64,000 nucleotides of DNA from an uncultured bacterium. Its GTDB lineage: Bacteria; Verrucomicrobiota; Verrucomicrobiia; Limisphaerales; UBA8199. Of this stretch, positions 8,358-60,000 are shown one piece after another. The notes beneath the pieces are model-generated. The model searched no databases. It saw nothing but the letters and a program-made list of their open reading frames with translations, and was not told the DNA's origin. The position numbers and the translations under genes were made by a program. The stretch's first letter is position 1. Every line of letters starts with the position of its first letter. Location: positions 128,001 through 192,000 of the forward strand of contig CAVVMW010000001.1 of the NCBI GenBank assembly GCA_963749495.1, read 5' to 3'.

Positions 8358-9854
8358 TCAGGCCTCGTTGATGAGTTCGATGCCTTTGAAGCGGCAGAGG
8401 CGCTTGAGGTCGGGCACTACGTCGCCGTAGCAGGTGACCCGGTGCAGACCGTGGGACCAGTTCTGCCAGAGCTTCTCGATGCTCCCATCCAGCTTCACGG
8501 TCATCTTGGTGCGGCAACCGCGTTCCGTGTCGGGCGATTCGATGACCTGGCCGGTGAAGTAGAGGAGCTTGTTGGCGCCGACGAGGATGGCCTGGGTGAC
8601 CCTCTGGCCGACGCGCATTTGCACCTGGGGCACGCACCCTTCCTGCCGCTCCATGATCGTGCGCAGTTTGAAGGGTTGCCGGGGGCCCTCGGGTCCGTCC
8701 ATGCGGGTCGAGCCCAGGCAGTGTGCCAGGATGATGGCCTGCTTGGATTCGTCCACCGTCGGGTCGCTGATGAAGCCGGGCCGCCCGGTCAGGCACTGGT
8801 AGATGAGGAAGGTCATGCCGGCGGCCAGGTCCGATTCGCAGATCCCCGCCAGGCCCATGTCGTTGAGCCGCACGAAGCCCAGGCACGGGAAGGCCGGGAG
8901 TTGGCGGTACATAGTGCCGTAGCAGTCCACGGTCAGGGCGGTGGCGTTCTCCTCGGTCATGACTTTCTCGAAGGCCAGTGCCAGCCGGCAGGAGTTAAGG
9001 ACCTCGGAGCGCGGCGGTTCCACGACCTTGGTTGCCTGCCGCACCCAGCGCCGCGTTTCCTCTTCGGCGGCCTTGGCGTCGATCGAATCGTAGGCGGCGA
9101 GCACGCGGCGCAGCTCGATGGTTTTGATCTCGGTCCCGAATCGCTCGGCGACGGCCTGGGTGAACTGTGCGGAGACGGCGCGGGTGGTGAGATTGAGCAG
9201 CCTGGCCTGGCGGAGGTGGTGGATGGCCCGGAAGGGGCGCACTGCGGCAGCCAACTGGTTGAGGTCGCTGGTGAGCATGCACTCGAGGTTCTCGCCGCCG
9301 GGTTGGCTGCGGAGCGCGCCAAGCCCGCTCCACTCATGGCCGGAATATGGGGCGGCAAAGAGGACCGTCGGCTTCTTGACCGCCAGAATCTCGCGCAGCA
9401 TTTCTCCAATGCCCATGGAGATGTGAATGAGCAGAATGCCGTCCGCCTCCTGGAGTTTGCTTCGGACTGCCTTGATGTCCTGCAGGCTTTCTGCAGCCTG
9501 GTTGACGACGAATTCGATGTCGCCAAACTCCTTGCTCATCCCGGCGAACGCCGCTTCGTAGCGTTTTACTTCCGCGTCGAAATCCATGATCGGTGTGGGC
9601 CAATGGGCCTTGGGCACGCCGAGATAGAGCTTGGCCACTTTGACTTTGGAGCGCCGGCACCCGGGGCTGATCAGGGTTGTGGCGCCCGATGGGCCTGCCA
9701 GCGCACAGAGACCGCCGGCCTGGAGACAACAGGCGCAGCCCCCGGCCAGGGCCAATGACTGGCGGAGGAAGGTTCGCCGATCCAGCGGGCGAAATCCCGT
9801 GACAGAGGGTGGATTGGAGGGCCATGAAAACGGAGAGAAGGAGTGAGTTTTCAT
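8358..9854 (-). CDS. Tat-exported L-fucose/arabinose isomerase-like protein
   Basis: DRRTFLR Tat motif; CESDL, LAHC, GCRTK, GLHRVTCYGD motifs. Confidence 0.7.
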   Translation of the reverse strand: MKTHSFSPFSWPSNPPSVTGFRPLDRRTFLRQSLALAGGCACCLQAGGLCALAGPSGATTLISPGCRRSKVKVAKLYLGVPKAHWPTPIMDFDAEVKRYEAAFAGMSKEFGDIEFVVNQAAESLQDIKAVRSKLQEADGILLIHISMGIGEMLREILAVKKPTVLFAAPYSGHEWSGLGALRSQPGGENLECMLTSDLNQLAAAVRPFRAIHHLRQARLLNLTTRAVSAQFTQAVAERFGTEIKTIELRRVLAAYDSIDAKAAEEETRRWVRQATKVVEPPRSEVLNSCRLALAFEKVMTEENATALTVDCYGTMYRQLPAFPCLGFVRLNDMGLAGICESDLAAGMTFLIYQCLTGRPGFISDPTVDESKQAIILAHCLGSTRMDGPEGPRQPFKLRTIMERQEGCVPQVQMRVGQRVTQAILVGANKLLYFTGQVIESPDTERGCRTKMTVKLDGSIEKLWQNWSHGLHRVTCYGDVVPDLKRLCRFKGIELINEA

Positions 9855-21713: not shown

Positions 21714-21751
21714 GCCCGGGGTCCGCAACCTGGGTCAAGGGAGAACTTCCT

Positions 21752-21890
21752 CGCAACCTTCGTCGCAACCTTTGTCGAAGCCTTTGTCGAAACCGTTGTC
21801 GCATTCCCTGACGTTCGGTCCAGGCGCTCACGTCCGCGACAGCACCGCCAAAGGAAGCGCCAAAGGAAGCGACAAAGGTTGCGACAAAGA
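21752..21890. repeat. 12-mer inverted tandem repeat family (CAACCTTTGTCG)
   Basis: Also present at about 35977-36057, 52003-52075 and 59925-59992. Confidence 0.8.
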
Positions 21891-23098: not shown

Positions 23099-23111
23099 CG
23101 CAAAAACCCCG

Positions 23112-23450
23112 TCACCGCGCAGCGGTGCTTGAAGGTAGCCGTGGTCCCATTCGTGCGATTCGTGTAATTCGTGGGACGTTCCGTGTCACCGCGTAGCGGT
23201 GCTCGAAGGTAGCCGTGGACTTCCAGTCCACGGATCCATGGCACAAGACTCCTCGCGTCGCGTAGCAACGCCTGAAACCCAGGAGCCGTTCTGCCAGTGT
23301 GAAGCCATCGAGCGTCGCTACGCGACGCGTGATTTTTCCAGCGCCCCCCACCGTGGACCGAGGTCCACGGCTACCTTCACCACGTCGCGACGCGACGCAC
23401 CCGCTGCGCCCTCTCCCCATCGGATGGGGAGAGGGTTAGGGTGAGGGGTC
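23112..23450. repeat. Family A REP element plus CCCTCTCCCCATCGGATGGGGAGAGGG hairpin (family D)
   Basis: Matches 432-625 and 43069-43220. Confidence 0.8.
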
Positions 23451-23499
23451 TGCCCGGCGCTCCGCCTCCGCCTTCACTGACCGATTTCTGGGGAGCAAA

Positions 23500-23647
23500 G
23501 AATGTTGTTGCCAAAACCGCGAAAACGGAGCACAAACGGCGATGGTTGGAGTTCGGTCGCAGAATCTGATGCACCATGAACTTTCGGGACTTCTTTATCA
23601 CGGACACCGGCCGCGTCCAGAGGCGGCACGGCCATCAGTGCCTCCTC
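23500..23647 (+). pseudogene. Relic copy of the cas3 upstream region and 5' end
   Basis: MNFRDFFITDTGR...HGHQCLL vs Cas3 MNFGEFFEAATGN..YGYQCRL; upstream GAATGTT.TTGCC...CCGCGAAAA...AGCACAA shared with 24879-24914. Confidence 0.65.
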
Positions 23648-23770
23648 ACCTCACTTGATGAGTTCCTGGTACTCATTCGGACCGTAAGCGCTCGCAGGCT
23701 TTCCGCAGTCTCCGGCTTCGAGCATCTTCTTCGATCTGCCGATCCCACTCTTCGCCACGGCGCGCGCGCA

Positions 23771-23794
23771 GGGACCGCTATTTCAAGCGGTCCC
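23771..23794. terminator. Perfect 9-bp hairpin immediately downstream (minus strand) of the mini-array
   Basis: GGGACCGCT-ATTTCA-AGCGGTCCC; no U-tract, so terminator function is uncertain. Confidence 0.4.
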
Positions 23795-23901
23795 GTTCAA
23801 TGGGGCCGCGCCCCGGGGGCGCGGAGAGCTTTCTCAGCTACGCGCGGAACTCTAAAAAACAAAACGCTTCAATGGGGCCTCGGCCACGACAGCCAGTTCT
23901 C
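23794..23901 (-). CRISPR. Single-spacer mini-array with type I-G-like repeats (one near-canonical, one degenerate)
   Basis: Minus strand: GAGAACTGGCTGTCGTGGCCGAGGCCCCATTGAAGC - 37-nt spacer GTTTTGTTTTTTAGAGTTCCGCGCGTAGCTGAGAAAG - CTCTCCGCGCCCCCGGGGCGCGGCCCCATTGAACG; shared GGCCCCATTGAA 3' end. Confidence 0.85.
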
Positions 23902-24412
23902 ATCCCGGGTCGAGGAAGGCTATGTTGTCGGGATTTACATCGGTGAAAAACACACCGTGCTGGGAACGGAAGTCGTCGAGGACGGACTGGACAACCGGCC
24001 AGCGAGGACCGAACTGCTCGCGCTTCTGCTCCAGCCAATCCGCCAGGACATCCTCGGGGAACTCAGGGCCTTTGTCCAAAAAGGCCCCGGCGAAATCAAG
24101 CACGTACGGCTTGACGACGACCGTCATCTCGATTCCGAGCAGATCGTCGTCGAAGCTCAAAAGCTGGGGAACATTGAACCCTTCGATTTTGTCCAGCCCG
24201 TGTTCCTTTAACCGCAAATACACATTGCGCTCCTTTTGGTAAGGCTCCAGGTGCTGAAAGATCTTGATTGCAGACCTGAAAGGTCTCTGTTTACTTTCTG
24301 CTACGAAGACGATACCGTGCATCCCGAGGCCAAGCCGGTCACCGAGCGTGACTGCGTGCCGGCTGGCGTATGCCTCGGCGTTTCGAAGCAAGAGCTTTTC
24401 GTTTAAAATCAT
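23900..24412 (-). CDS. Small kinase-like protein (170 aa), candidate CRISPR-repressed toxin
   Basis: Gly loop LGLGMHGIVF, AIKIF lysine, KERNVY glutamate, VLDFAG and DVNPDNI; stop codon abuts the mini-array; frame stays open up to ATG 24643. Confidence 0.7.
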   Translation of the reverse strand: MILNEKLLLRNAEAYASRHAVTLGDRLGLGMHGIVFVAESKQRPFRSAIKIFQHLEPYQKERNVYLRLKEHGLDKIEGFNVPQLLSFDDDLLGIEMTVVVKPYVLDFAGAFLDKGPEFPEDVLADWLEQKREQFGPRWPVVQSVLDDFRSQHGVFFTDVNPDNIAFLDPG

Positions 24413-24647
24413 GCACAACCAAAACCGCCACTCCGCAGAGGTCCGGATGATGTTGCTGCTCAACGGACAAGCCATCCCCATCGCCCAGATGGGGGCCGAG
24501 TTCCTCATGCTTGACAGCCCCGTCGCGCACGCGCCCTGCGTCGCCGATGTCATGCTGACTGTGGACGGACACGAGCAGCGCTGGTCAGTCCGTCTGCCAG
24601 AAGGCATCCGACCCGACCGGAGGCGCGTGCCAGGTGCAAACATTTAG
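24411..24647 (+). CDS. Small hypothetical beta-rich protein (78 aa), divergent from the kinase-like gene
   Basis: MHNQNRHSAEVRMMLLLNGQAIPIAQMGAEFLMLD...VDGHEQRWSVRLPEGI; its ATG overlaps the kinase ATG in CATG at 24410-24413. Confidence 0.6.
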   Translation: MHNQNRHSAEVRMMLLLNGQAIPIAQMGAEFLMLDSPVAHAPCVADVMLTVDGHEQRWSVRLPEGIRPDRRRVPGANI

Positions 24648-24664
24648 CTTGCATTCCGGCTGCA

Positions 24665-24693
24665 AAAGTACCATCGTTGGTCGTGTATGTCAA
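24665..24693 (-). promoter_or_regulatory. Near-consensus sigma70 promoter toward the kinase-like gene and mini-array
   Basis: TTGACA (24693-24688), 17-bp spacer ending TGG, TACTTT (24670-24665); AT-rich UP-like tract at 24701-24711. Confidence 0.75.
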
Positions 24694-24697
24694 CACC

Positions 24698-24717
24698 TTC
24701 GTTTTATTTTTCAGAGT
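24698..24717 (+). promoter_or_regulatory. PAM plus partial protospacer of the mini-array spacer
   Basis: TTC|GTTTTaTTTTTcAGAGT vs spacer GTTTTgTTTTTtAGAGT. Confidence 0.85.
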
Positions 24718-24961
24718 CAGGCCCGCCCTGCAGGAAATCGCGGCTCGCCCCCCTCGCTGGCTCCCGGACCATCCTGGATCAGGCTACCGACCGGCCGAAA
24801 CACTTCGGGATAACCTTTGCCGGGCAGGCCTTCACCGCTTCCGGGGCCGATCAGGCAGCGCCGGATTTTCCTCATGTGGAATGTTCTTGCCGAGGCCCGC
24901 GAAAAGAAGCACAAGGACCCTACAGCACCATTTGGAAGTCAGGCCCGGAATTTGAGCGAAT

Positions 24962-27878
24962 ATGAACTTCGGGGAATTCTTTGAAGCCGCGACGGGTAAC
25001 CCGCCTTATGGCTACCAGTGCCGGCTTGCCTGCGGCAGCGACGCACGCTCTGACAAACCCGAAACCCTGACGGGAGGTTCCGAATGCCGCTCGCTGCTGA
25101 TGAACGTCCCGACCGGCTTGGGCAAAACCGCCGCAGTCGTTCTGGCATGGCTGTGGAACCGGGCTGCGCATGCCGACCTTGCCCACCGAACGACTTCGCC
25201 GCGCCGCTTGGTCTATTGTCTGCCGATGCGGACGCTGGTCGAACAGACGGAGCGCGAAATCGCAAAGTGGCTGACGAACCTGTGGAACAAGACGGATCAA
25301 CTTGGATTCGGCGCCCATGCGAAGCAACAACTGGGATGGCTCGTGGAGCATTCGCCGATCATCCTCATGGGCGGGGAAAAAGCGGACCGGGATTGGGACG
25401 TTTGGCCTGAACAGCCCGCCATCCTCGTCGGCACCCAGGACATGTTGCTCTCCCGTGCCCTCAATCGCGGTTACGGCATGAGCCGCTACCGCTGGCCGAT
25501 GCATTTCGGACTGCTGAACAACGATTGCCTGTGGGTCATGGACGAGACGCAGCTGATGGGGCCTGGGCTATGGACCTCGGCTCAGCTTGACTGGATGCGC
25601 GACCGGCGTTTCAAGAGCGCTCGACCATCCTTCACTTGGTGGACGAGTGCAACACTGGGGACCCAATTCTTGGAAACCAAGGACCGGAAGGACAGCAAGA
25701 TGGAATTGCCGGAGCCGGTCGTTGTCGGCGACGACCCCAACGCGCAGTCAATCCTGGGCGCTGTTCGTCCTGCCTCATGGTGGGCGCCGCCCAATCAGTC
25801 GGCGCCGGGTTCAAAGACCAGGAGTGCGACGAAGCATTCGGCACAGGAAGGCGAATCGTTCTTTTGCTTGCTCGCGGCGGCGATTGGCGACGAACACCTG
25901 AGCGGCTCTCTGTCCCTGGGCATTTGCAACACCGTGAGAGGGGCGCAACAACTGAAGCAGGCCATTGACGGGCTCCGGGAATCGGGGCGCTGTCCGCACG
26001 ACGTCATTCTGTTGACGTCTCCGGTTCCGCCCCTCTGACCGCAAGGAGTCTATGGACAAGCTCGTTGCCTTCGAGCGTCAACGAAAAGACAGCGAGCGAG
26101 GTTCCGCCGTTCCGCCCGCGGGTTTGATCTGCGTGACCACGCAAGTCATTGAGGCTGGTGTGGATGTTTCCGCGCGCCGAATTTGGATGGCATTGGCCCC
26201 GTGGCCCTCGCTCATCCAACGTCTCGGACGGCTCAATCGAGACGGAAAGCTAAACGGGCAGGCCAAGGCGTACTTCTTCAAGCAGCCCGCCGACGCCAAA
26301 ATCAAACCGAAAGACCGGATCGGGCCTTACCTCGCAACTGACTTACAGTTGGCCGAAAAGTTGGCCGACCACCTGGTCAAGATTTACGACGCACAGCCGG
26401 ACCTTGCAGCCGTGGAGGCCCTTGCACGGCTGACGAAGAACTCAGCAACGAAGGAACTCGCCGGAGACGCTTTGAGCGTGAAACCGGAACCATTCCCCCG
26501 TGCGTTGGTGGTTCATGGGCTGTTCTCGACGGAGCCAGATGTTTTCGGTGGGTTCACGGATGTCGGCCCCTTCATCCGGAACTCTGACCCCGACGCCGAT
26601 GTGACTGTGTTTTGGCGAGAGTGGAAGGGCAAGCAACGAGCGCTCTCTGGTGACGCTTTGGCTGGACCACATTTCACGGCTGACGAAGGCTGCCAAGTTC
26701 CTTTTTGGAGACTCCGAGACTTTCTCGGCGATCAGCGAAGGGCTTGGGTGTGGAGTCCGAAAAACGCAGATGGAGAACCCGCTTGGGAACCCGTCAATCC
26801 ATCATCGGTCTGCCCCGGCATGGTCGTCATGCTGCCGGCGGCCTTTGGAGGCTACAGCCAGTCCGTCGGCTGGACCGGTAATCGAGACCACACGTTGGCC
26901 AACCTTCCGTTACCGGGTCCATTCGAGGAAGGCTACAGCCACGACCAATTCAGCGAAAAGGGATGGTGGGTGGAACTCGGAACGCACCTCGACAACGTCG
27001 AGAACGTAGCGAGACAAATCGCTTCAGTCTTGGAACTGCCAGCCCCACTCGCCGAATCAATCGTCACGGCAGGAGCTTTTCACGACATCGGCAAGGCCCT
27101 CGCGCCGTGGCAATTCGCCTTGCCCCAGCCGCTGAAAGATTGTTTGAAGCTGTGGGCCAAAGCACCATACTGGCTAAAAGTGTCCGGTGCGGCGAAGCAG
27201 GTGAAGGTTCAAACCCTCACCGAGCATCTGCGCACCTTGTGTTCAGGCGTCGGAGAAGTGCAACAAGAAGCGAGCGAGGACGGAATCGTCACTCTGCGCT
27301 GGCTGCTATCACGACCGCTGACCGCAGACGAAAAAGAGCGCCTCACTTCTTTCATCGGCGTCCAGCGGGCTTCGATGGTTCCTTTTCGCCCCAAGCTCCG
27401 CCACGAAGCCGCGTCCGCACTGGCGTTGTGGCACCGTTACTTCCGAGCCAAGACGACGGACTTCCCGGCGCTGGTCATCTACCTCGCCGCTGCCCATCAC
27501 GGCAAGGTCCGCACGGTGCTGGCGTCCCGCGAAGCTGACGGCCAGGATGTCTGCGGGGTGCCCAAGTCAGCGCAAACGCTCCCTTGGCCCGCTAAAGACA
27601 ATCCGATGGCGCTTGATTTCACATGCGCAACGGACGGTGCCGAAGGCAAGTTTTCGGAAGATGGAACAGGGTTTTTCTTTGAATCACCCGGCTGGACTGC
27701 GCTCGTCGCTGACCTGCTTGGCCCTTGTCAGGAAACGGCAGAGACAACTGCATCCTCCGCAGTGCCTGCCGGTGAGCCTTCCAAACTGGGGCCGTTTGCG
27801 CTCGCTTGGCTCGAAGTGCTCGTGCGGGCGGCGGACGAGCGAGCCAGCGCACAACCCTCCCACCGTTTGCCACCTTGA
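24962..27878 (+). CDS. cas3: Type I-G Cas3 (SF2 helicase + C-terminal HD nuclease); +1 frameshift near 26021
   Basis: PTGLGKT, LPMRTLVEQ, DETQ, SAT, TTQVIEAGVD, QRLGRLNR; HL..V, HDIGK, RHE, HHGK; removing one C restores LTSRFRPSDRKESM. Confidence 0.92.
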
Positions 27879-27882
27879 GCCG

Positions 27883-30000
27883 ATGCGAACTTCTGCCGCA
27901 GATTCACGAAGCACGCTATCAGCCGGGAGATGGCCGGTAGTCACACTGCCCGGTGTGTCGCTGGACAGCTTGGGGCTTTACTTGTCTGCCTTGGGGCTCC
28001 TCGCAGTGACCTGCCGCCAGTGGCCGACGGCGCGCGGATGCTGGCGGCAGGGTTCCTTTGTGCTGGTCAATGGCCCGCCAACTCTTGGCGAACTGCTTCG
28101 CTACCTTTCCGAAGTGGGGAGTGAGGGTGCATGGCGGACCTACAAGCCAACGTGGATCGAGAGCAAAAAGAAAGACCGCGGCAAGGAACCCGTCAATACG
28201 CGGCACTGGGCATCATTCGAAGCGGATGAGAGCATTCTGCCCCTGTTCGCCGCCCATCTGGCATGTGGAAATCGGCTCGCTTTCAACCCCCTATTCGGCA
28301 AGGGCGGAACCGAAGGCCGACGTGATTTTGCGAAGGGTTGGCGTGAGGCTGTCGAAGATATCAAGAATCCACCGCGAGGGGTTGACCGAGAACAAGTCAG
28401 CCAGGATTTAGCCGCTCTGCTGTCTGGGGAAGCCTGCCGCCACGTTCTCGGCGACTTCAAAGCCGCGTGTTGGTTCAGCGCCGCCAACGAAATCTACAAT
28501 AGCGGCATGAAGAGCTTCAGCCGCAAAGGGCAGGTCACGCCGTGGGCGGTTGTGCTGGCGTTTGAGGCGTTTCACTTTCTCGCGGGCAGCGCCTCGCGCC
28601 AATTGGGCAACAACCGGCAGGCGAGGGGAGCTTTTCCGTTTGTCACCACGGCGGCAGCGCCGGAAAGAGAAAAAGAGGCCGGGCGCTCGGTAGGTGAGTT
28701 CTGGGCTCCGGTTTGGGAACGCCCGATGACGATTGAGGAAGTCCGCGCCTTGTTTACTCGCGGGCGCGCGGAAGTGGACGGCACAGGCGCCCTGACCCCA
28801 GCGGCGTTCGGTGCTGCCATAGTCCAGCGAGGCGTTAATGCAGGAATCGCCGAGTTCCGTCGGTTCACGCTCTTCCACACGACCAGTGCACAGACTTTCG
28901 AATCCCGGCTGGCGGCGACAATTCCCGTCGCAGGGCAGCCTGTCAGCGCGCTTTCGCAAACCGTTTCGAGAGTCTTGGCGTTGCGTGACCGCCTGCCAGC
29001 GGATCGGAAAAAAGGCCAGAGCTGGATTTATGTTGGCCTTCGCGGTCCGTTGGACGAGGCGTTGGTGAGATTGGCGGCGGAAGCAACACCAGAAGCTGGT
29101 TGCATGCTCACCGACAACTTGCTCACCGCTTTGGAGCGCGTGGATCGCAATCGCGCATTTCGCAAGACCAAGCCGCCCATTCGGTTCAGGTTGTTCCCGG
29201 CTTCTTGGGCAAAGTCACTGTTCCCGGACGCACATCCGCCATGCGAGACGCGGCTGGCGATGGCTATCTGTTCGCTCTGCGGAAACAGCGATGCTCAGAA
29301 GCCCGCTCGCTTCTTGGGCTACCGCTTCGGCATGGAACCGATCAACAAAGCCCAGCGTTTATGGGCTTTCCCCGAAGCGTCGCCCTTCCGCCGTGTGTGG
29401 GCAGGAGCCAACTTGGCGTCGGACCTGGCCGCGGTCCTTCGTCGGCGCCTTGTGGAATCTGAACCAACGGATTCGCCGCCCTTCAGGGCAGCAATGCAGA
29501 CAGGACTGGCCGACGTGCTCGATTGGCTCGATGGCGAAGTCGATGAGGCGGCGCTCGCGGCTTGGATCAACCGCTGCAGTCTCTTCGATTGGTCGGCCTG
29601 CGATCTCCCGCGATTTCCGAACCGCAACGTCGCCGATTCCGCAAATGCGCTACACGCGTTCTACGCATTTTTCCGGCCGCTGTTCGATCCCTCGGCGCTC
29701 CGGGCGATCCGCAATCCGCAGATCGAAGAACCGCCGAAAGCTGGCCCGCTCCGGTCGCTTGCTGCATTGCTCAACCGCGGCGATGTTGCCGGGGCATGGG
29801 GTCTCGCGCGCGGAGCTTATGCCCGCCTCGGCGTCCCAACAGCGGATTTCCCGATTTGGCAGGAGTTCACTCTCCAGCGCCCGCAAAGGCTGCTCGCAGC
29901 ACTCCTTGTCCCCGTCCGTTTCCACCGAATCGCCGCCGCGTTCCGCCGGTGGCAATCACCAAGTCAAATCGACAAACATGAACAAATCCAATCTGCTTGA
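27883..30000 (+). CDS. csx17: Type I-G large subunit Csx17 (Cas8u/Cas8g)
   Basis: YLSALGLL, FNPLFGKGG, PWAVVLAFEA, AFPF, GEFWAPVW, RGVNAGIAEFRRF; follows cas3. Confidence 0.85.
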   Translation: MRTSAADSRSTLSAGRWPVVTLPGVSLDSLGLYLSALGLLAVTCRQWPTARGCWRQGSFVLVNGPPTLGELLRYLSEVGSEGAWRTYKPTWIESKKKDRGKEPVNTRHWASFEADESILPLFAAHLACGNRLAFNPLFGKGGTEGRRDFAKGWREAVEDIKNPPRGVDREQVSQDLAALLSGEACRHVLGDFKAACWFSAANEIYNSGMKSFSRKGQVTPWAVVLAFEAFHFLAGSASRQLGNNRQARGAFPFVTTAAAPEREKEAGRSVGEFWAPVWERPMTIEEVRALFTRGRAEVDGTGALTPAAFGAAIVQRGVNAGIAEFRRFTLFHTTSAQTFESRLAATIPVAGQPVSALSQTVSRVLALRDRLPADRKKGQSWIYVGLRGPLDEALVRLAAEATPEAGCMLTDNLLTALERVDRNRAFRKTKPPIRFRLFPASWAKSLFPDAHPPCETRLAMAICSLCGNSDAQKPARFLGYRFGMEPINKAQRLWAFPEASPFRRVWAGANLASDLAAVLRRRLVESEPTDSPPFRAAMQTGLADVLDWLDGEVDEAALAAWINRCSLFDWSACDLPRFPNRNVADSANALHAFYAFFRPLFDPSALRAIRNPQIEEPPKAGPLRSLAALLNRGDVAGAWGLARGAYARLGVPTADFPIWQEFTLQRPQRLLAALLVPVRFHRIAAAFRRWQSPSQIDKHEQIQSA

Positions 30001-31237
30001 TCCCGCCACGCTGCTCGGCAGCGGCGAACACCGTCTCACCCTCCAGGCAACCCTCCAGCCGGTGGCCGGCCTCGATCGCTTCCAGCCCGCTGGCTTTCCG
30101 GAAATCGGTCATGTGATCTACGACTCACCACGGCGCGATGGCCGGCCCGATAAGATCTGCATCGTCGATAGCGCCGCGAGCATGGCCAACCATCTCGAAG
30201 CCGTCTGTCTCGCAGGCCCCTTCGGCGCGACAGTCGCCCCTGAGTTGGCTGGTCTGCCTTACGTGGAATGTGTCACCGACGAGTATCAATTGGACGCGAC
30301 CGGATTCGCTTCGGTCACCAAATCAGGACCGCACACAACGGTGATGAACACCTTCACGGAAGGGCATCGGCTGGCGTCTTCGTACTTTTGTCTGGGAAAA
30401 GAAAAGACGAAGGGCGTCGAGAAAGGTGAAGGGGAGGCTGCGGCTGACTCAACGAAGAAAAAAAGGAAGACGAAGGCTTTGCTCGTTGTTGATGGGAAGA
30501 CGTCCGATCGAGGATTCTACGAAGCTCTGCGTGACGAATTCAACGTCGTGAATTTAGGAACCAATTCGCATCCCTTGCCACAGGACTGGTGGCGGGTTTT
30601 CAAAGTTATCTTCAAGTACGACCCGAACTCGCTCGTTCACGGCATTCTCTTTCCCGCGCTGGGAATCAAAATCCCGCGCGTTCTCACAGGGCATCTTGAA
30701 GCATTTGGCGCGGCGCGAGTCGGGAGTGCGGGCGTGAAATTCGACAAGCTGCTGATGACTACGTCCGGCCAGCCCATCTTTGCCGTGGATGAAGAAACTG
30801 CGCGCGAGATTCGCGCGACCTTCATCATCGATCTTGCGTTGCTCCGCTCGTTTGGCCGCACTGAAAAGAAAGACGGCAACGTGAACGTCCAAGGCTTGAG
30901 CGAAGCGCAAAAGCGGCTGCTGCTTGCGCTCGCGCTGTGGAAGATTGGCAGGTTGCTGGCCAAGCCATTCCGCTATCGCTCACGCTGCGATCTCGAAATT
31001 GCGAGTTTGCGGCGTACCGATGCCGCCGCCGCTGGTGACCTGAAAATCGAGGATCTGGAGGTTGATATCGCAGACGCGATCCGCAGTGCAGGTTTCCCGA
31101 AGAACCCTGTAACGCAGGTCTATTGGCCTGCAGGCGAGATTTTCAAAAAGGCGAAGGAGAAAGCGGACACCTCGGACGAGAATCAACCGGCTGGAGAGGA
31201 AGACGAAGAACAGGCTGGCGGAACCAACGAGGAGTGA
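29978..31237 (+). CDS. csb1: Type I-G backbone subunit Csb1 (Cas7u)
   Basis: RFQPAGFP, VDSAASMANHLE, EGHRLAS, DPNSLVHG, RYRSRCDL. Confidence 0.88.
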   Translation: MNKSNLLDPATLLGSGEHRLTLQATLQPVAGLDRFQPAGFPEIGHVIYDSPRRDGRPDKICIVDSAASMANHLEAVCLAGPFGATVAPELAGLPYVECVTDEYQLDATGFASVTKSGPHTTVMNTFTEGHRLASSYFCLGKEKTKGVEKGEGEAAADSTKKKRKTKALLVVDGKTSDRGFYEALRDEFNVVNLGTNSHPLPQDWWRVFKVIFKYDPNSLVHGILFPALGIKIPRVLTGHLEAFGAARVGSAGVKFDKLLMTTSGQPIFAVDEETAREIRATFIIDLALLRSFGRTEKKDGNVNVQGLSEAQKRLLLALALWKIGRLLAKPFRYRSRCDLEIASLRRTDAAAAGDLKIEDLEVDIADAIRSAGFPKNPVTQVYWPAGEIFKKAKEKADTSDENQPAGEEDEEQAGGTNEE

Positions 31238-31243
31238 ACGGCA

Positions 31244-32776
31244 ATGGTGAGGGTCATCCTTCAGCAGCGTTTTCCCCTGGGGCGCTTTCACGCGAACCCC
31301 TGGAAGGCCTTTCCGTTCGACGATCCCTATGGCGAATGGCCGCCGAGTCCGTGGCGATTGCTGCGCGCGCTTGTTGCTCGCAGCCATCAACTCGCGCGTG
31401 AGGAGCCCACCGTGGGCGAAATCGAGCGTGCCGCTCTGGTGCGCGCATTTTGCACCAGCTCGGTCCGGTGGCATCTGCCTGAGCAGTCGTGGCGCGGACC
31501 CGGTTTGCGGCAGTATCAGCCAGCGGAGTTCAGCCGCGTTCCCAAATCGGCGAAAGAACCTGGTCGCATGGCGCACAGCACCACAAAGAACCAGGACAAC
31601 TGCTGGCTCACCGCCGGGCCGGAAGACCCGGTTTGGTGGTTCATCGAAGGCGAGCACTGGAATGATGAGGTCGTGGGGGTTCTCGATGCGTGTCTGGCCC
31701 GGATGACCTATTTTGGTCGTGCCGAATCCATCACTCTGATGCAACGTGCTGACAGCAAAGTGCAGCATCCCGAACCAAATTGCTTTGCGATACCGCAACG
31801 CACCTCCCGTAGTGTGCTTGTTTTGTTTCCCACCCCCGACGCCACGCTGACCGATGTCGAACGCGGCACCGACGATCCGGCGATCGCCCAATCAACTGTG
31901 CCGCCAGGTGCCGTTTGGCGGTTCGCGGAACGTCCACGCCAGCCCCCGCTGCAGGCAATCCCAAGACGGCCCAAACGAGTATCGTCGGAAGTTCGCTTCC
32001 TCCAATTTGCAATCGGCTCACGCGTCTCGCCGACCAGGGATTCAGCGGCCATCCTGACGAATCGTTTTAGGGGTCGAGCCATCAGAATCTTGAGCGGCGG
32101 GTCGTGGAGTAAAGCTCCTGCCGAGCTCAAAGCGGACCTCGCTTTCTTCACGGGCAAGGACGCCGATGGAAAGCCCCTCGAAGGGCATCAGCACGCATTC
32201 TTCGCCCTGTGGTTTGATCGCGCGACTCGCAAAGCTGCACGCATGTTGGTCTGGCGTAAGACTCCGTTTTCCCACGAAGAACAACAGGCATTGCTCGCAG
32301 CCGCGCAAGAGCCGCTGAGCCTCGGTTACAACGACAAAGGCAAAGACCCGTGGCGCAGCAAAGACCCGTGGCGCATTCACCTCGTCCCGCTCGATACGAC
32401 GGTCCAGCCACCGAGTGGATTCGATCCATCGCAGCAATTCGTAACTTGGGAGGCGATGTCGCTCTTTGTGCCACCCCAACACATTTACGACCGCCACGGA
32501 AAGGAGAAACCGGGCAAATCACTGGCATCTCAGGTTCTGCGCGAACTGCAAAGTCATGGATTTGCGGCGACCAACGCTTCGATTGAAGTGTTGGGCAGCG
32601 GGTGGGTGAAAGTGCATCAACCTCGCGTCGAAAGTGGCGAGAAGACCAATTCGACAAAGCGCGGCTTTCGAATACGCCTGACATTTCCCATTCCAATCAG
32701 CGGCCCCATCGCCCTCGGCCACTCCGCCCACTTCGGCCTTGGCCTGTTCGTGCCGGCGGCTGGCGGCGGCCTTTGA
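31244..32776 (+). CDS. csb2: Type I-G Csb2 (Cas5/Cas6 fusion)
   Basis: GRFHA, EWPPSPWRLLRAL, YFGRAES; C-terminal GPIALGHSAHFGLGLFVP Gly loop. Confidence 0.92.
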   Translation: MVRVILQQRFPLGRFHANPWKAFPFDDPYGEWPPSPWRLLRALVARSHQLAREEPTVGEIERAALVRAFCTSSVRWHLPEQSWRGPGLRQYQPAEFSRVPKSAKEPGRMAHSTTKNQDNCWLTAGPEDPVWWFIEGEHWNDEVVGVLDACLARMTYFGRAESITLMQRADSKVQHPEPNCFAIPQRTSRSVLVLFPTPDATLTDVERGTDDPAIAQSTVPPGAVWRFAERPRQPPLQAIPRRPKRVSSEVRFLQFAIGSRVSPTRDSAAILTNRFRGRAIRILSGGSWSKAPAELKADLAFFTGKDADGKPLEGHQHAFFALWFDRATRKAARMLVWRKTPFSHEEQQALLAAAQEPLSLGYNDKGKDPWRSKDPWRIHLVPLDTTVQPPSGFDPSQQFVTWEAMSLFVPPQHIYDRHGKEKPGKSLASQVLRELQSHGFAATNASIEVLGSGWVKVHQPRVESGEKTNSTKRGFRIRLTFPIPISGPIALGHSAHFGLGLFVPAAGGGL

Positions 32777-32795: not shown

Positions 32796-33044
32796 ATGAA
32801 AACAGTGACGCTCTCGGCCACGTTTGACGGCCAACAGATTCGTCTGGAAGAGGACTATCCGCTGCCCAAGAACGCGCGGCTGCTGGTGACGGTGCTGCCC
32901 GCGGCAGCCGACAGCGAAGAGGAGTTCCGTCGAAGTTGGTACGGGCTCGCCGCCGACGCCCTGGCGGGCGCCTATGGCCCGGAAGAACCGGAATATACCT
33001 TGGACATGCTCAAGGAACCCAATCCCCACTATGAAGGCCGGTGA
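32796..33044 (+). CDS. Putative antitoxin
   Basis: MKTVTLSATFDGQQIRLEEDYPLP...LAGAYGPEEPEY; overlaps the PemK-like gene. Confidence 0.7.
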   Translation: MKTVTLSATFDGQQIRLEEDYPLPKNARLLVTVLPAAADSEEEFRRSWYGLAADALAGAYGPEEPEYTLDMLKEPNPHYEGR

Positions 33045-33378
33045 CATCGTCCTGGCACTGCTGCCGCAAGCGGACGAAGCCGCGAAATGGCGGCCCGCGC
33101 TCATCCTGTGTCAAATGCCGCCTTACGGCGACGCGCTCCTGTGCGGCATCAGCTCTCAGCTTGAACGGGCAGTGCAGGACTTCGATGAAGTGATTGGATC
33201 GAACGCCCCTGATTTTCGCGCCTCGGGGTTGCGGGTCGCTTCGGTCGTCAGACTTGGCTTTCTTGGCACGCGTCCGCTCGCTCAAGTGGGTGGCCTGTTG
33301 GGGCGCATTGATCCGCAGCGTCTGGTCCGTTTGCGGCATAACTTGGCCGTTCACTTGCAGAGGTCGCCCGATGCATGA
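33031..33378 (+). CDS. PemK/MazF-family toxin
   Basis: MKAGDIVLALLPQAD...KWRPALIL...CGISS...SGLRVASVVR...LGRI. Confidence 0.85.
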   Translation: MKAGDIVLALLPQADEAAKWRPALILCQMPPYGDALLCGISSQLERAVQDFDEVIGSNAPDFRASGLRVASVVRLGFLGTRPLAQVGGLLGRIDPQRLVRLRHNLAVHLQRSPDA

Positions 33379-35917: not shown

Positions 35918-36063
35918 GCTATCATGGGGGCAAGATGTTTCTTGGAGCCTGTCCCCAAAACCCCGCGAGTGGGGGACCTTTGTCGCAGCCTTTGTCGAAA
36001 CCTTTGTCGGAGTGGCCATTTCTCGGCAAAGGTGCCGACAAAGGCTGCGACAAAGGTCCGGAA

Positions 36064-51968: not shown

Positions 51969-52170
51969 GACCTATTGCAGCGGACTCTGGATGACTTTGG
52001 TGTCTTTGTCGCAACCTTTGTCGAAAACCGGAGCAATTCGACAAAGGTCGCGACAAAGGTTGCGATAAAGGTCGCCAGAGTCACTCATAATCCGGCGCAA
52101 TGGGGTTGAGCCCCAGGCTCATTGGCTTGCTTGACCCCGGCGCGCCCCCGGTCTATTAAGAAGGCAGGCG

Positions 52171-57003: not shown

Positions 57004-60000
57004 TCACCTCACCTTCACTGTCAAGCTGGCAGGGGCCAGTTGGTCCGCCTCGGCTTTGAGTGTGATCGCGCGGGCCTGGCAGGCGGGGCGCAGGATGGCC
57101 AGGCACCGGCCCTGGAAGGTGGAGTGCTCGGGCTTTCGGAAACTGGACGGGTCGCACGGGTTACCGCTGCCGAGGGCGGCCAACTCGCCGGCGCCGCTGA
57201 CGCTAAAGCGCACGGGCACCGCCGCGGCCGGCACCCGCTCCCCGGCGGCGTCCACCACCTCGACCGTGACGTAACACAAATCGTTCCGGTCGGCGCGGAT
57301 CACCGGGCGGTCGGGCGTGAGGCGCAGTTTTTTGGATTTGCCGGCGGAGCGCAGGGTGGTGCTGGCGACTTCCCTGCCGCTGATGAGGCCAATCGCGCGC
57401 AAGGTGCCGGGGGCATAAGGGACCTCGAACCTGGCTGTGAGCTTGCCGCCGGCGGAGACCGGTTTCTCGCCGAGCTTTTTGCCGTTGAGCTCGAGCCGGA
57501 CCTTGTCGCAGGTGGAGTACACCGCCACCTGCATCGGCCTGCCCGCCTCGACGGGCCAGGACCAACTCTGGAGTTCGTCGGGCCAGCCCCAGCCGCTGAC
57601 CTTCTCGGAGCGGCCCGGCGGCAGGGGGACGTGCACGGCCAGTTCGAGCGGGCTGCGGCCCCAGACGACGTCGCGATAGAACGACTGCGGTTTCTTGAAT
57701 CCGCACAGGTCGAGGTTGCCGCACCAGGCATCGAACCAGGGCCAGGGCATGAGCTGGGGGTTCTTTTCGTTGTCCAGCACCGTGTGGCCGAGGCCGGCCT
57801 CGCCCAGGTAATCGAGGGCGGTCCAGACGAAATCTCCGATGACATAAGGGTGTTTCTCGACCATGCCCCAGCAGTTGAAAGCATCGGCCGAGAACGATTC
57901 GGTGCAGACGATGACCCGGTTTGGATTGCGCGCATGGTCCGGCTCGTATTTGTGGGGCAGGTAATTGTAGCCGGCGACGTCGAGGTGCTCGAAGGCCGGA
58001 TCGGAGACCTGGTCCCAATTGCGGCCGGGCCAATCCCAGGTGTCGCAAATCGCGGCGGTCACCGGGCGTGTCGGGTCCTCACGCAGCACGGCATCGCGGA
58101 GGCGCTTGGCGAGGTCGGGCCGGTCGAACCGCTCGTGGACCTCGTTGCCGATGGACCAGAAAAGGACCGAGGGATGATTGCGGTCGCGCCGGACCATGTC
58201 GGCGATGTCCCGCTCGCACCATTCCTTGAAGAAGCGGTGATAGTCCTGGGGATTCTTGGCCTGTTCCCACTGGTCGAAGGCCTCATCGATGACCAGCATG
58301 CCGAGGCGGTCGCAGGCCTCCAGGAAGGCGGGCGAGGGCGGGTTATGGCTGGTGCGGATGGCGTTGAAGCCGTTGGCCTTGAGCAACTCGACGCGCCGCT
58401 CCTCGGCCCGGTCCAGGGCCGCCGCGCCGAGCGGGCCGTTGTCGTGGTGGACGCAGCCGCCTTTGAGTTTGAAGGGCTGGCCGTTGAGGCGCAGCCCGTG
58501 CTGGGCGTCCACCTCGACCTTGCGGATGCCGAAAGTGGTCTCCGAGCGGTCCTTGACCTCTGCGCCGGCCACGATCTCCACCTCAGCGCGATAAAGGCCG
58601 GGCGACTGCGGCGACCACAAGTGAGGCGAGGCAATCTCGAAGACCTGTTCCGAGTGCGAGGCCGTGGTGGCGTTCACTCGCGCGGGCGCTTGGGCGGATT
58701 TGACCACCTTGCCGTTTGGCCCGACAATCCGGGTCTGTACCAGCACGTCCTGGCCGCCGCCGCCCTCGACCGGGTCCAGCGTCGTCGCCACTTTGACCGT
58801 GGCCGTCTGCCCGGAGACCCGCGGCGTGGTGACATAGACGCCCCAGAGCGCGACGTGAACGGGGTCGGTGACGGTGAGCCACACGTGGCGGTAGATGCCG
58901 GAGCCGGAGTACCAGCGGCTGTTCTTCCCTTCGTTGCGCACCCGCACCGCCAGGACATTCTCCTGGCCCGCCGCTTTGAGGTGGGGCGTTAGATCCTGAG
59001 CAAAGCTGGTGTAGCCGTAAGGATGATTGCCCAGGGACTGGCCGTTGAGCCACACGTCGGCGTCCATATAGACGCCGTCGAAACGGACCGAGACGCGCTT
59101 GCCCTTATCGGCGGGGTCGAGCCTGAAGTGCTTGCGATACCACCCGGTCCCGCCCAGGACGTGGCCGGTCGAGGCCCCGCCGGGGCTGGCGCCCGGGTCG
59201 AAGGGCCCCATCCGGCCCACGGGCGAACCGGCCTCGTAGATGCCTCCGTTGCCGGTGGCGTCGAAAACGCGGACCGCCACGAGGTCGGTGCCGTTGCCTC
59301 TCACCACGTGGGCCGGCACGCGGTAGCGCCGTTCCTGGTCCCAGGCCGTCTGGAAATTCGGCGGAAACGACCCCATCCCCCCGATGCGCACCCCGTTGAG
59401 GTAGGTCTCGTCCACGTCGTCGATCTTGCCCAGCAGCAGCTCGATCTCCTTGCCCTCGACCAAAGCCGGCAACTGGATGCGGCGGCGGAACCAGCCGTAC
59501 ACGTTGTCGTTGGTGTAGCCCGAGTGATGTTCCCAATAATCCGGCAGCAGCACTTCCTCCCAATCCGAGTCGTTCACCATCGGGTTCTTCCAGCTCGCGT
59601 CGTCGCCCTTGTGAAAACGCCACTTCCCCTCGACCACCCCGAAGGCCGGGATGGTCCGGTCCGACGGCGGCAGGTCCTCGATGCTCCAATCATGCGGCAC
59701 GTCGAGCATCCGCCAATTCGTGTCGTCAAATTCCGGCCGCTCCGCTCCCGGGGCGTCTGCCCGCAGGAACATCCAGTCCGCATCGAAGCTGCGGTCCCGC
59801 GCCCCGGCGCCGAGCAGCCCGGCGCTCAAAAGCAGGGCCAGGCCCGCAAACAGGACCGCATTTGGCTTCCGCGTACTAAATCGGAGCAACCCGCATGTGC
59901 GCACCAATGCGGGTTTTGGACCTTGGTCGCAACCTTTGTCGAAGGCCCGATTTCTCGACAAAGGATCCGACAAAGGCTGCGACGAAGGTTGTGCCAATGG

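Follow-up and report, generated by a model that had tools for sequence, protein, structure and literature searches.

The question raised by this locus is whether a protein kinase can be complete when its chain ends a few residues behind the catalytic loop and its only DFG-like motif lies ahead of that loop. The stretch analyzed, called the window below, comprises 64,000 nucleotides (nt) of contig CAVVMW010000001.1 (positions 128,001-192,000), and all coordinates are window positions. The open reading frame (ORF) in question occupies positions 23900-24412 of the minus strand, and its product is referred to as the kinase. An earlier note on this DNA had proposed a compact, permuted kinase fold that might be the effector of a CRISPR-controlled circuit. 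The reading that we favor, with a probability of roughly 0.55, is that of a minimal kinase-like enzyme of ~165-170 amino acids (aa) with a transposed Mg-binding loop, which would be gated by a small partner protein, the two genes forming an autonomous cassette.

23900..24412, minus strand: mini protein-kinase-like gene of the 'ST_Kinase' family (170 aa plus stop by translation)

Translation of this segment yielded MILNEK...LGLGMHGIVF...SAIK...E61...VLDFAGAFLD...FFTDVNPDNIAFLDPG*, with LGLGMHGIVF at residues 27-36, AIK at 48-50, the helix-C glutamate at position 61, VLDFAG at 104-109, and DVNPDNI at 158-164. All motifs named in the earlier note are present, in the order that it described. DVNPDNI is followed by AFLDPG and the stop codon, which places the end of the protein 7 residues past the catalytic-loop Asn. 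The longest ORF at this position (23900-24643, 247 aa) was ruled out as the gene, its first 77 residues being the antisense of the partner gene on the plus strand. The conserved start is at 24412, where the earlier note had placed it.

A word-indexed protein search gave 316 candidates, of which 256 matched at E ≤ 1e-3; nearly all of these are 160-178 aa long. The 256 proteins come from metagenomes of Verrucomicrobiota and Planctomycetota, and none of them contains a Pfam domain. When 1.84 billion cluster representatives (50% identity) were searched with a profile, 1351 clusters matched at E ≤ 1e-3, 961 at ≤ 1e-10, and 299 at ≤ 1e-30. The end point is shared: among the best 150 of the 1351 clusters, almost all matches run to the C-terminus of their own protein. 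No longer or fused relatives were found among 1053 candidates of 299-2000 aa, which is weak evidence, and no continuation of the kinase was found downstream of the stop codon in any reading frame. Across 80 loci, i.e., 79 related loci and the window, the three codon positions of the gene have entropies of 0.89, 0.74, and 1.51. By this coding-like pattern the kinase sequence is under purifying selection, and judged by the recurrent length and end point the ORF is a whole, intact gene of a family that truly ends a few residues past the catalytic loop.

The protein belongs to a family that is already present in PADLOC as PDLC01137, 'ST_Kinase' (E 1.1e-50, 169.8 bits; protein residues 8-166 on positions 5-162 of the 162-position profile). 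Other profile collections gave weaker results. In Pfam the kinase matched FTA2 only (E 0.13), and among 48 family members Pkinase was found in 9 (best E 0.042) and APH in 1 (0.064). In NCBIfam, the Ser/Thr kinase profile PrkT was matched with E 0.002 and 17 bits, against a cut-off of 280 (residues 19-164 on positions 21-148 of 322). Pfam RIO1 matched neither the kinase at E ≤ 10 nor the 48 members at E ≤ 1. A HipA family was matched neither by the kinase in Pfam or NCBIfam nor by the 48 members in Pfam, and the analogy to HipA drawn in the earlier note stands as a concept and not as a family relationship. Among PHROGs the kinase had no match (the best value for the partner protein was 0.061), and a single-sequence search of the Protein Data Bank (PDB) gave a chance match only (E 1.6).

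A profile search of PDB sequences was more informative at the level of motifs. It set LGxGxHGxV-...-AIK opposite the Gly-rich loop and the β3 lysine of solved kinases, 'iem' opposite the end of β5, and 'aileeygifllDvspsniaf' opposite 'LKSLGLIHADLKPENIML' of HIPK2/3. Because of the alignment to the HIPK2/3 catalytic loop, D158 is taken as the catalytic Asp and N163 as the catalytic-loop Asn. The positions concerned are the following.

24308..24334, minus strand: Gly-rich loop L27-V35 (LGLGMHGIV), with the G33 codon, GGT, at 24314-24316; G28, G30, and G33 kept in 289-290 of 293 relatives

24263..24265, minus strand: codon of K50, the AIK lysine; kept in 291 of 293 and aligned with the AIK lysine of solved kinases

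23924..23941, minus strand: catalytic loop D158-N163 (DVNPDN); D158 kept in 287 and N163 in 288 of 293, aligned with HADLKPENI of HIPK2/3

In the alignment of 293 relatives, G28 is conserved in 290, G30 and G33 in 289 each, K50 and E61 in 291 each, and Y65 in all 293, while D106 and F107 are kept in 292 each, D158 in 287, and N163 in 288. The residues singled out in the earlier note are therefore conserved among homologs (287-292 of 293). The family as a whole contains the Gly-rich loop, the β3 Lys, the helix-C Glu, and a catalytic loop of the form D-x4-N after helix E. A DFG motif or an equivalent Asp C-terminal to the catalytic loop is absent from the window kinase and its relatives, and the kinase also lacks the activation segment and helices F-I of the C-terminal lobe (C-lobe). 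The RIO signature, consisting of a family match and a metal-binding Asp past the catalytic loop, was not found in the kinase, its likeness to RIO proteins being one of fold alone.

The AlphaFold2 model of the kinase, built from a 48-sequence alignment, has a predicted local distance difference test score (pLDDT) of 94.8 and a predicted template modeling score of 0.88. It consists of a helix (5-18), three strands (21-29, 33-40, and 46-52), a helix (55-70), two strands (84-88 and 93-97), two short strands (103-104 and 110-112), a long kinked helix (120-152), and two further short strands (154-156 and 164-165), with no element past the last of these. Foldseek returned 81 PDB matches at E ≤ 1e-3, and all among the matches listed are kinase-like: RIO1 (3.6e-5), RIO2, BRAF, PsiK, POMK, PRPK (4e-4), CK2, and Src. 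Template modeling scores normalized on the query lay between 0.35 and 0.47, a partial likeness to the bilobal fold. When the best 1000 Foldseek chains were aligned with VIA-align, 22 reached Z ≥ 8, the top value being 9.8 (6zxe_z, 129 aligned residues, root mean square deviation [rmsd] 4.3). Archaeoglobus fulgidus Rio1 (1zp9_B) gave Z 8.0 with 132 aligned residues and an rmsd of 4.4. In this match, model residues 1-168 lie on chain residues 28-206. It starts with the N-terminal helix, keeps the normal order of elements as far as the catalytic loop, and stops there. YabT gave Z 8.2 at 24% identity, and APH(2'')-IVa gave Z 8.1. As the fold matches are uniform and agree with the motif-level alignments, we regard the assignment to the kinase fold as safe. 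According to the model, the protein is a half-size kinase-like fold composed of the N-lobe, helix E, and the catalytic loop. The proposal of a compact kinase-like fold in the earlier note is borne out in this respect, since both the predicted structure and the structure searches point to kinases.

If no DFG motif follows the catalytic loop, the Mg-binding Asp would have to come from elsewhere in the chain, and one segment qualifies by its conservation.

24083..24100, minus strand: L105-A110 (LDFAGA), candidate transposed DFG-like loop between strands 103-104 and 110-112 (D106 and F107 in 292 of 293 each; secondary structure from DSSP)

The invariance of D106 and F107 equals or exceeds that of K50, E61, D158, and N163. 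DSSP analysis of the model places a 5-residue loop, LDFAG, between strands 103-104 and 110-112, behind the hinge. A second pair of strands, 154-156 and 164-165, flanks the catalytic loop, and the lengths of the two pairs match. In canonical kinases with the topology of protein kinase A, β8-DFG-β9 and β6/β7 form four short strands. The strand-loop-strand at LDFAG, whose loop has the length of the canonical one, together with the strands of the catalytic loop would mirror this arrangement, with the first pair moved ahead of helix E. The distance between the hinge Glu (E95) and the catalytic Asp is ~18 residues longer in the kinase than in the PrkT profile, as expected of an inserted hairpin. Y65, four residues past E61, occupies what we take to be the regulatory-spine position that packs on the DFG Phe. 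Residues 103-113 lie outside the predicted interface with the partner protein described below, and for this reason partner binding does not explain their invariance. Direct-coupling analysis of the 293 sequences (effective number 257) was uninformative for segments 100-114 and 150-168: the top couplings were gap or terminus artefacts, and the best relevant pairs, 114-151 and 100-168, ranked only 33 and 40. On balance, LDFAGA is probably a transposed Mg loop. The permuted motif order claimed in the earlier note holds at the level of the sequence, as the chain ends 7 residues past the catalytic Asn without a DFG downstream; the equivalence of the two loops in space draws its support indirectly, from the observations above.

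The same segment can be read without any transposition. The protein would then be a truncated kinase fold of ordinary order that lacks a Mg loop, LDFAGA would simply replace helix D, and the product would be a pseudokinase, a nucleotide-binding sensor, or a scaffold, with no role other than binding the small partner or a Cas component. We consider this unlikely, although several observations fit it: the LDFAGA segment aligns with the helix-D region of the canonical kinase 3hko, which is the simplest non-transposed reading, the sequential structure alignments are all in normal order and end past the catalytic loop, and the sequence likeness to active kinases is weak. It does not account for the finding that D106 and F107 are as invariant as K50, E61, D158, and N163, and a full catalytic set would be unusual for a pseudokinase. 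Moreover, the model has a strand-loop-strand and not a helix at LDFAGA, with a separate helix at 120-134, and the position of 103-113 outside the partner interface leaves the invariance of this segment unexplained by binding. We therefore retain the transposed Mg loop as the preferred reading of LDFAGA.

Clustering of the ORFs of the 80 loci revealed only two conserved genes, the kinase gene and, directly at its start but on the other strand, a small ORF. ORF clusters lying opposite either of these two genes were recognized as artefacts by their codon periodicity.

24411..24647, plus strand: partner gene, encoding a 78-aa all-beta protein predicted to form a small PilZ-like barrel (77 of 80 loci; codon entropy; AlphaFold2 barrel)

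24410..24413, both strands: CATG holding both starts, the partner ATG on the plus strand and the kinase CAT (= ATG) on the minus strand (50 of 62 loci)

The partner gene was found in 77 of the 80 loci, the three others having at most 362 nt of flank, and the two genes are divergent in all 77 loci that hold both. Its codon-position entropies in its own frame (1.19, 0.82, and 1.65) show the periodicity of a coding sequence. The search for relatives gave 590 proteins of ~78-92 aa, which belong to no Pfam family, and no helix-turn-helix (HTH) family was matched by the partner in Pfam or NCBIfam. AlphaFold2 folds the partner into a six-stranded barrel (pLDDT 88.5), for which the best Foldseek matches were PilZ domains (Alg44, PA4608, MrkH, and YcgR) with probabilities of 0.95-0.99 and a best E value of 0.027, none being ≤ 1e-3. 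VIA-align Z values were at most 6.0, with PilZ domains (Z ~5, at most 5.4) level with phage tail and Hcp barrels.

The arrangement of the two start codons is unusually tight. A single CATG in frame with both genes was present in 50 of the 62 loci in which both protein anchors were recognized (the anchor patterns failed in another 15 loci, which were left out). The start codons in these loci overlap by 2 nt, and no intergenic DNA separates the starts of the two genes. By eye, a purine run resembling a Shine-Dalgarno sequence was often seen ahead of the kinase ATG and none ahead of the partner ATG.

The complex of the two proteins was predicted from the kinase alignment with ATP and two Mg ions and the partner alignment, in three runs with three controls. 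The interface score ipSAE was 0.92 in all three runs, and the best control reached 0.01. The complexes comprise 89-96 contacts, at least 89% of which are common to the runs, and the pLDDT of the partner is 91. In the calibration of the tool, 116 of 157 solved complexes scored at or above the ipSAE mark, as did 2 of 215 mismatched pairs, figures that apply roughly here, where own alignments were used and ligands were along. A score that merely reflects the memory of a solved complex is unlikely, since the kinase has no solved relative by sequence. On the kinase side, the predicted interface comprises residues 25-30 (base of the Gly-rich loop), 37-38, 40-47, 74-75, 80, 82-83, and 85, residues 95 and 97-101 (hinge), and residue 162 at the edge of the catalytic loop. 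On the partner side it comprises residues 4-9 (the conserved GGHSA tail, in which Ser8 is near-invariant), 11-13, 23-33, 47-54 including the invariant D52, 60-61, and 71-77. The partner would thus sit at the mouth of the nucleotide cleft, with residues 40-47 forming the β2-β3 loop. In ordinary kinases this place is occupied by helix D and the front of the C-lobe. A protein docked there could act as a lid, complete the active site as a subunit, or be a substrate. The prediction supports the view that the kinase and its 78-aa partner may bind each other.

The 5' part of the kinase gene carries a further conserved signal.

24313..24318, plus strand: TACCGT, a tentative -10-like hexamer 93 nt upstream of the partner ATG, within kinase codons 32-34

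At 22 conserved four-fold degenerate codons of the kinase gene, the entropy of the third base was 1.19-1.99 bits at 21 positions and 0.19 at G33, whose codon is GGT in 68 of 70 sequences. The partner gene contained no outlier of this kind. In all 50 CATG loci, TACC(G/A)T, a version of TANNNT, was found 84-95 nt upstream of the partner ATG. The frozen T of the G33 codon creates TANNNT on both strands, so that either strand may be the one concerned. We tentatively interpret TACCGT as the -10 box of the partner gene located inside the kinase gene, an arrangement that would make the two mRNAs mutually antisense over their 5' parts. A scan of positions 23400-25100 for the sigma-70 consensus gave 0 promoter-like sites. 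A look-up of sequencing runs containing this DNA returned no RNA run and a single DNA run, which held 0.15 of the words.

The neighborhood of the pair bears on the second question posed by the locus, namely its relationship to CRISPR.

24962..32776, plus strand: type I-G interference genes cas3g (two ORFs), csx17/cas8g1, csb1/cas7g, and csb2 (NCBIfam TIGR02621, TIGR04113, TIGR02570, and TIGR02165)

These genes begin 550 nt from the kinase gene, directly downstream of the partner gene. The gene cas3g is split into ORFs 24962-26038 and 26052-27878, which are in different frames and cover profile positions 1-310 and 328-585 onward; a frameshift, an error in sequencing, or a true division of the gene could account for this. 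No cas1, cas2, or cas4 was found beside the cas operon in the window, and Tandem Repeats Finder detected no CRISPR array within it. Type I-G cas genes were present in 19 of the 80 loci and in 18 of the 58 loci whose partner-side flank is 5 kb or longer. Wherever they occur, the interference genes follow the partner gene and are read in its direction. In eight loci cas4/1 and/or cas2 were also found, in six of them just past the 3' end of the kinase gene, which places the cassette between the adaptation and interference modules.

The flanking genes of 23 loci without cas genes are mutually unrelated and comprise housekeeping enzymes, sigma factors, and a few recombinase, HTH-peptidase, or helicase-nuclease genes. 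The family is rare among genomes, with 186 matches in ~185,000 species genomes, and it occurs in 2 of 301 sampled genomes of the phylum, with one copy in its own genome. No match was obtained by tblastn of the kinase against 50,697 phage records or 72,556 plasmid records. In IMG/VR, 2 of 49 pattern matches passed tblastn and were rejected as relatives, because they are unrelated outside the motif and had been selected by the search pattern itself. These two ORFs (L084 1826-3301 and L085 736-2265) encode ~500 aa with the exact decapeptide KPYVLDFAGA and look portal-like by eye. The overall pattern is that of an autonomous, patchy, and mobile two-gene cassette that is strongly, though not exclusively, drawn to I-G loci.

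In the window and in some related loci, a small repeat element follows the kinase gene.

23794..23901, minus strand: two-repeat mini-CRISPR 3' of the kinase gene (degenerate repeat, spacer, full repeat)

24698..24736, plus strand: site with a 5' TTC that the mini-array spacer matches in part, located between the partner stop codon and cas3g

The degenerate repeat (23866-23901) overlaps the kinase stop codon and keeps ...GGCCCCATTGAAGC. It is followed by a 36-nt spacer (23830-23865), a full repeat with a GC hairpin (23794-23829), and a further 8-bp hairpin (23771-23794). The spacer matches 24701-24736 on the plus strand at 14 of 16, 15 of the first 20, and 23 of all 36 bases, its best non-self match in the 64-kb window, and 0 of 100 shuffles gave two matches. 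The target lies 54 nt past the partner stop codon, 261 nt before cas3g, and 290 nt upstream of the kinase start. For type I-G, the accessible text of PMC10504553 gives GAA/TTC as the protospacer-adjacent motif (PAM).

Mini-arrays located 0-19 nt past the kinase stop codon were also found in three related loci (L002, 8521-8626; L004, 8502-8608; L047, ~8505-8623), and in L030 (2284-2395) one lies downstream of a truncated kinase ORF. The spacers of the five loci have a common core, GTTTT.TTTT.AGAG, and in the other four loci the best non-self spacer match (15-18 of the first 20 bases) is located 70-110 nt past the partner stop codon. In 14 of the 19 cas-linked loci no mini-array follows the kinase gene, and in several of them cas2 follows directly. 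The assembly, which is 88% complete, contained no array with the repeat of the mini-array. A second two-repeat element with 72-nt spacing was noticed on contig 10 (G000:C10 ~635.84-635.95 kb; L083 1483-1587), where it overlaps the 3' end of a 506-aa ORF without a Pfam match.

Like CreR and CreA, the mini-array consists of two repeats and one spacer with partial, PAM-proximal complementarity to the head of a cas operon, and creA-like elements are described for I-U (now I-G) loci in the accessible part of 10.1101/2023.03.10.532045. In contrast to CreR and CreA, the mini-array abuts the 3' end of a protein gene, and the kinase/partner pair lies between guide and target. From its repeat structure and target, the mini-array appears to be a regulatory guide of the CreR/CreA type. 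Because the target is at the head of the cas operon, cas autorepression and not control of the kinase is the simplest reading. The kinase stop codon and the first repeat leave no space for a promoter between them, and so the guide is probably made from the kinase transcript. The notion that the kinase is the effector of a CRISPR-controlled circuit does not find support in these data, as the spacer target is near cas3g and not at the kinase start and about two-thirds of the well-flanked members have no cas genes within 8 kb.

A version of this notion deserves consideration nevertheless. The kinase could be a protein toxin that is repressed by Cascade with the mini-array RNA, with the small protein as antitoxin or co-factor. 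Such a CreTA-like guard would kill cells whose CRISPR-Cas system is lost or inhibited. The position of the mini-array 0-19 nt past the kinase stop codon in four loci and past the truncated ORF in the fifth would suit this model, as would the common spacer core and the recurrent best non-self match 70-110 nt past the partner stop codon. As the starts overlap, there is no place for the kinase promoter except within the partner gene or past it, and hence possibly at the AT-rich target. CRISPR-repressed protein toxins have been published (10.1101/2024.01.05.574328, in its accessible part), and the cassette is patchy and autonomous, as toxin-antitoxin modules are. We nonetheless judge this model to be rather improbable. 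The partner gene lies between the target and the kinase start, which are 290 nt apart, and the next gene past the target is cas3g. Such a position fits CreR-type autorepression of the cas operon (10.1101/2023.03.10.532045, in its accessible part). In addition, the mini-array is missing behind the kinase gene in 14 of 19 cas-linked loci, and 40 of 58 well-flanked loci have no cas genes at all, which makes the family as such independent of CRISPR control.

Returning to the minimal enzyme with a transposed Mg loop, we propose the following mode of operation. The kinase would be laid out as an N-terminal helix, a full N-lobe, the hinge, an inserted strand-LDFAGA-strand element, helices D' and E, and the catalytic loop, at which it ends. 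The inserted element would supply the Mg-binding Asp (D106) and the spine Phe (F107) from their transposed position. With these two residues the active site would be complete, and the protein could bind ATP and transfer or hydrolyze phosphate. Thus, a protein without the canonical motif order and without a C-lobe would most likely still work like a kinase. The 78-aa partner, predicted to be an obligate pair mate that docks on the cleft mouth, would most likely gate or complete the active site, either as an inhibitory, antitoxin-like lid, as a regulatory subunit, or as a substrate. In about a third of its well-flanked copies, the cassette appears to have been taken over by type I-G loci, placed between the genes for adaptation and those for interference, and where a mini-array is present, it is directly 3' of the kinase gene and probably co-transcribed with it. 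The cassette as a whole may represent a self-contained switch. That this switch is toxin-antitoxin-like is a tentative suggestion, and a role as a regulator of Cas function is slightly more doubtful still.

Several observations weigh against this interpretation. The sequence-level matches to kinases are weak (FTA2, E 0.13; Pkinase, 9 of 48; PrkT, E 0.002), and the VIA-align Z values of 8-10 are only modestly above the background stated for the tool. The profile-to-PDB alignment sets PfvLDfagaylD opposite the helix-D region of 3hko, and the strand pairing around LDFAGA was read from the DSSP string of the model alone. The score of the predicted complex is a model confidence, obtained with own alignments and ligands outside the calibration of the tool. 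Head-to-head genes with overlapping starts are unlike classical type II toxin-antitoxin operons: instead of a co-directional operon, a divergent pair was found in 77 of 77 loci. Finally, the link to CRISPR is absent in 40 of 58 well-flanked loci, which contain no cas genes within 8 kb.

A different kind of enzyme might also be considered, namely a kinase for small molecules or nucleotides, akin to aminoglycoside or choline kinases, whose ligand would be presented or sensed by the barrel partner. APH(2''), methylthioribose kinase, and PsiK are among the fold matches (Z 8.1 for APH(2'')-IVa), the protein has neither an activation segment nor a peptide-binding C-lobe, and PilZ-like barrels bind nucleotides elsewhere. 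We regard this as very unlikely, as the large C-terminal helical substrate domains of those enzymes are absent here and Pfam APH was found in only 1 of 48 members (0.064). Furthermore, the PilZ likeness of the partner is weak and its consensus has no obvious motif of the cyclic di-GMP type by eye. The idea that the ORF is a pseudogene, i.e., a decayed 5' fragment of an ordinary Ser/Thr kinase gene, draws on the fact that the protein halts directly after the catalytic loop and can be dismissed, since hundreds of diverged relatives have the identical end point and length, the codon entropies indicate purifying selection, and neither a downstream kinase frame nor longer relatives were found.

If the minimal enzyme is real, a catalytic core of ~165 residues would set a new lower size bound for the kinase fold. 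It would also be a natural case of motif transposition in which all catalytic residues are kept and the Mg loop comes from elsewhere in the chain, and might be useful in engineering as a scaffold of very small size. The head-to-head genes with their common CATG, together with the frozen synonymous site, represent an unusual architecture of gene expression. For CRISPR biology, the pair would be a recurrent type I-G accessory module, placed between adaptation and interference genes, in which the predicted partner is always present and in several loci the kinase gene appears to be transcriptionally fused to a CreR-like guide. A more far-reaching picture combines all of these elements. In it, the protein is the smallest natural protein-kinase core (~165 aa), with the DFG hairpin moved between hinge and helix E, everything past β7 discarded, and a barrel subunit in place of the front of the C-lobe. 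Each gene would have its promoter inside the 5' coding region of the other, the frozen GGT of G33 marking one of the two promoters, and their mRNAs would be mutually antisense. In I-G loci, the kinase mRNA would carry the CreR guide and thereby wire kinase expression and CRISPR autorepression into a guard or toxin-antitoxin circuit. Taken jointly, this combination seems improbable to us.

Some other features of the window were recorded in passing. An ORF for a PemK/MazF-like toxin (32974-33378, plus strand; PF02452, E 1.8e-5, 25.4 bits against a cut-off of 23.1) is located just after csb2. Between a tetratricopeptide repeat gene and the mini-array, a cluster of palindromic repeats occupies 23111-23400, with 34-nt direct repeats 74 nt apart (GTCACCGCG.AGCGGTGCT.GAAGGTAGCCGTGG) and inverted partial copies at 23305-23379. 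Short arrays of 12-nt tandem units (TCGCAACCTTTG and the complement-like CAAAGGAAGCGA) form facing intergenic pairs at 21751-21803 and 21849-21889, and further arrays of this type are present at 35976-36057, 52039-52075, and 59956-59988.

With respect to known systems, the window protein and PDLC01137 represent one family, as they match end to end, are both linked to CRISPR, and have a length of ~162 aa in the profile. The PADLOC-DB text describes PDLC01137 as 'Serine/Threonine Kinase present with a putative adaptation module operon next to I-C systems in Rhodopirellula species'. This text names I-C neighbors, whereas the window and 18 related loci have type I-G genes instead, and it makes no mention of the absent C-lobe, the LDFAGA loop, the partner gene, or the mini-array. 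PDLC01137 is cas-linked by name, yet most copies of the family are not beside cas genes. Full-text searches, which did not cover supplements, found no description of the kinase family, and a term look-up in the accessible text of two mini-array papers (10.1101/2023.03.10.532045 and PMC10120712) gave no mention of a kinase. The family thus appears to be known by its profile name only, and the literature searched apparently describes neither its truncated architecture nor the partner, the start codons joined in one CATG, or the association with the mini-array.

HipA-HipB and other toxin-antitoxin pairs with a kinase have a concept in common with the cassette, that of a kinase neutralized by a small co-encoded protein in an autonomous, patchy two-gene unit. 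Unlike HipA-HipB, the partner is a beta-barrel protein without an HTH match, and the genes are arranged head-to-head with overlapping starts and not as an operon. With PilZ-domain adaptors the partner has only the fold of a small six-stranded barrel in common, and it matches no Pfam family.

The best structural matches of the kinase are the RIO kinases (RIO1, E 3.6e-5, Z 8-9.8) and Bud32/PRPK (PRPK, E 4e-4). Like the window protein, these have an N-terminal helix before the N-lobe, no activation loop, and a short C-lobe. They differ from it in being 210-290 aa long, in having their metal-binding Asp after the catalytic loop, followed by further helices, and in having unrelated partners; Rio1 was aligned only up to residue 206 of 258. 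Bud32 is not known to work without bound partners. Mini-kinases of the OspG/NleH and YrbL types were retrieved by a language-model feature search, in which their clusters scored 0.92-0.93 with 135-149 of 256 features in common; no alignment was obtained, and they serve as leads only. These families have the ordinary motif order. OspG is a kinase core of ~200 aa that is activated by a bound partner protein, and the kinase of the window is shorter than all of these mini-kinases.

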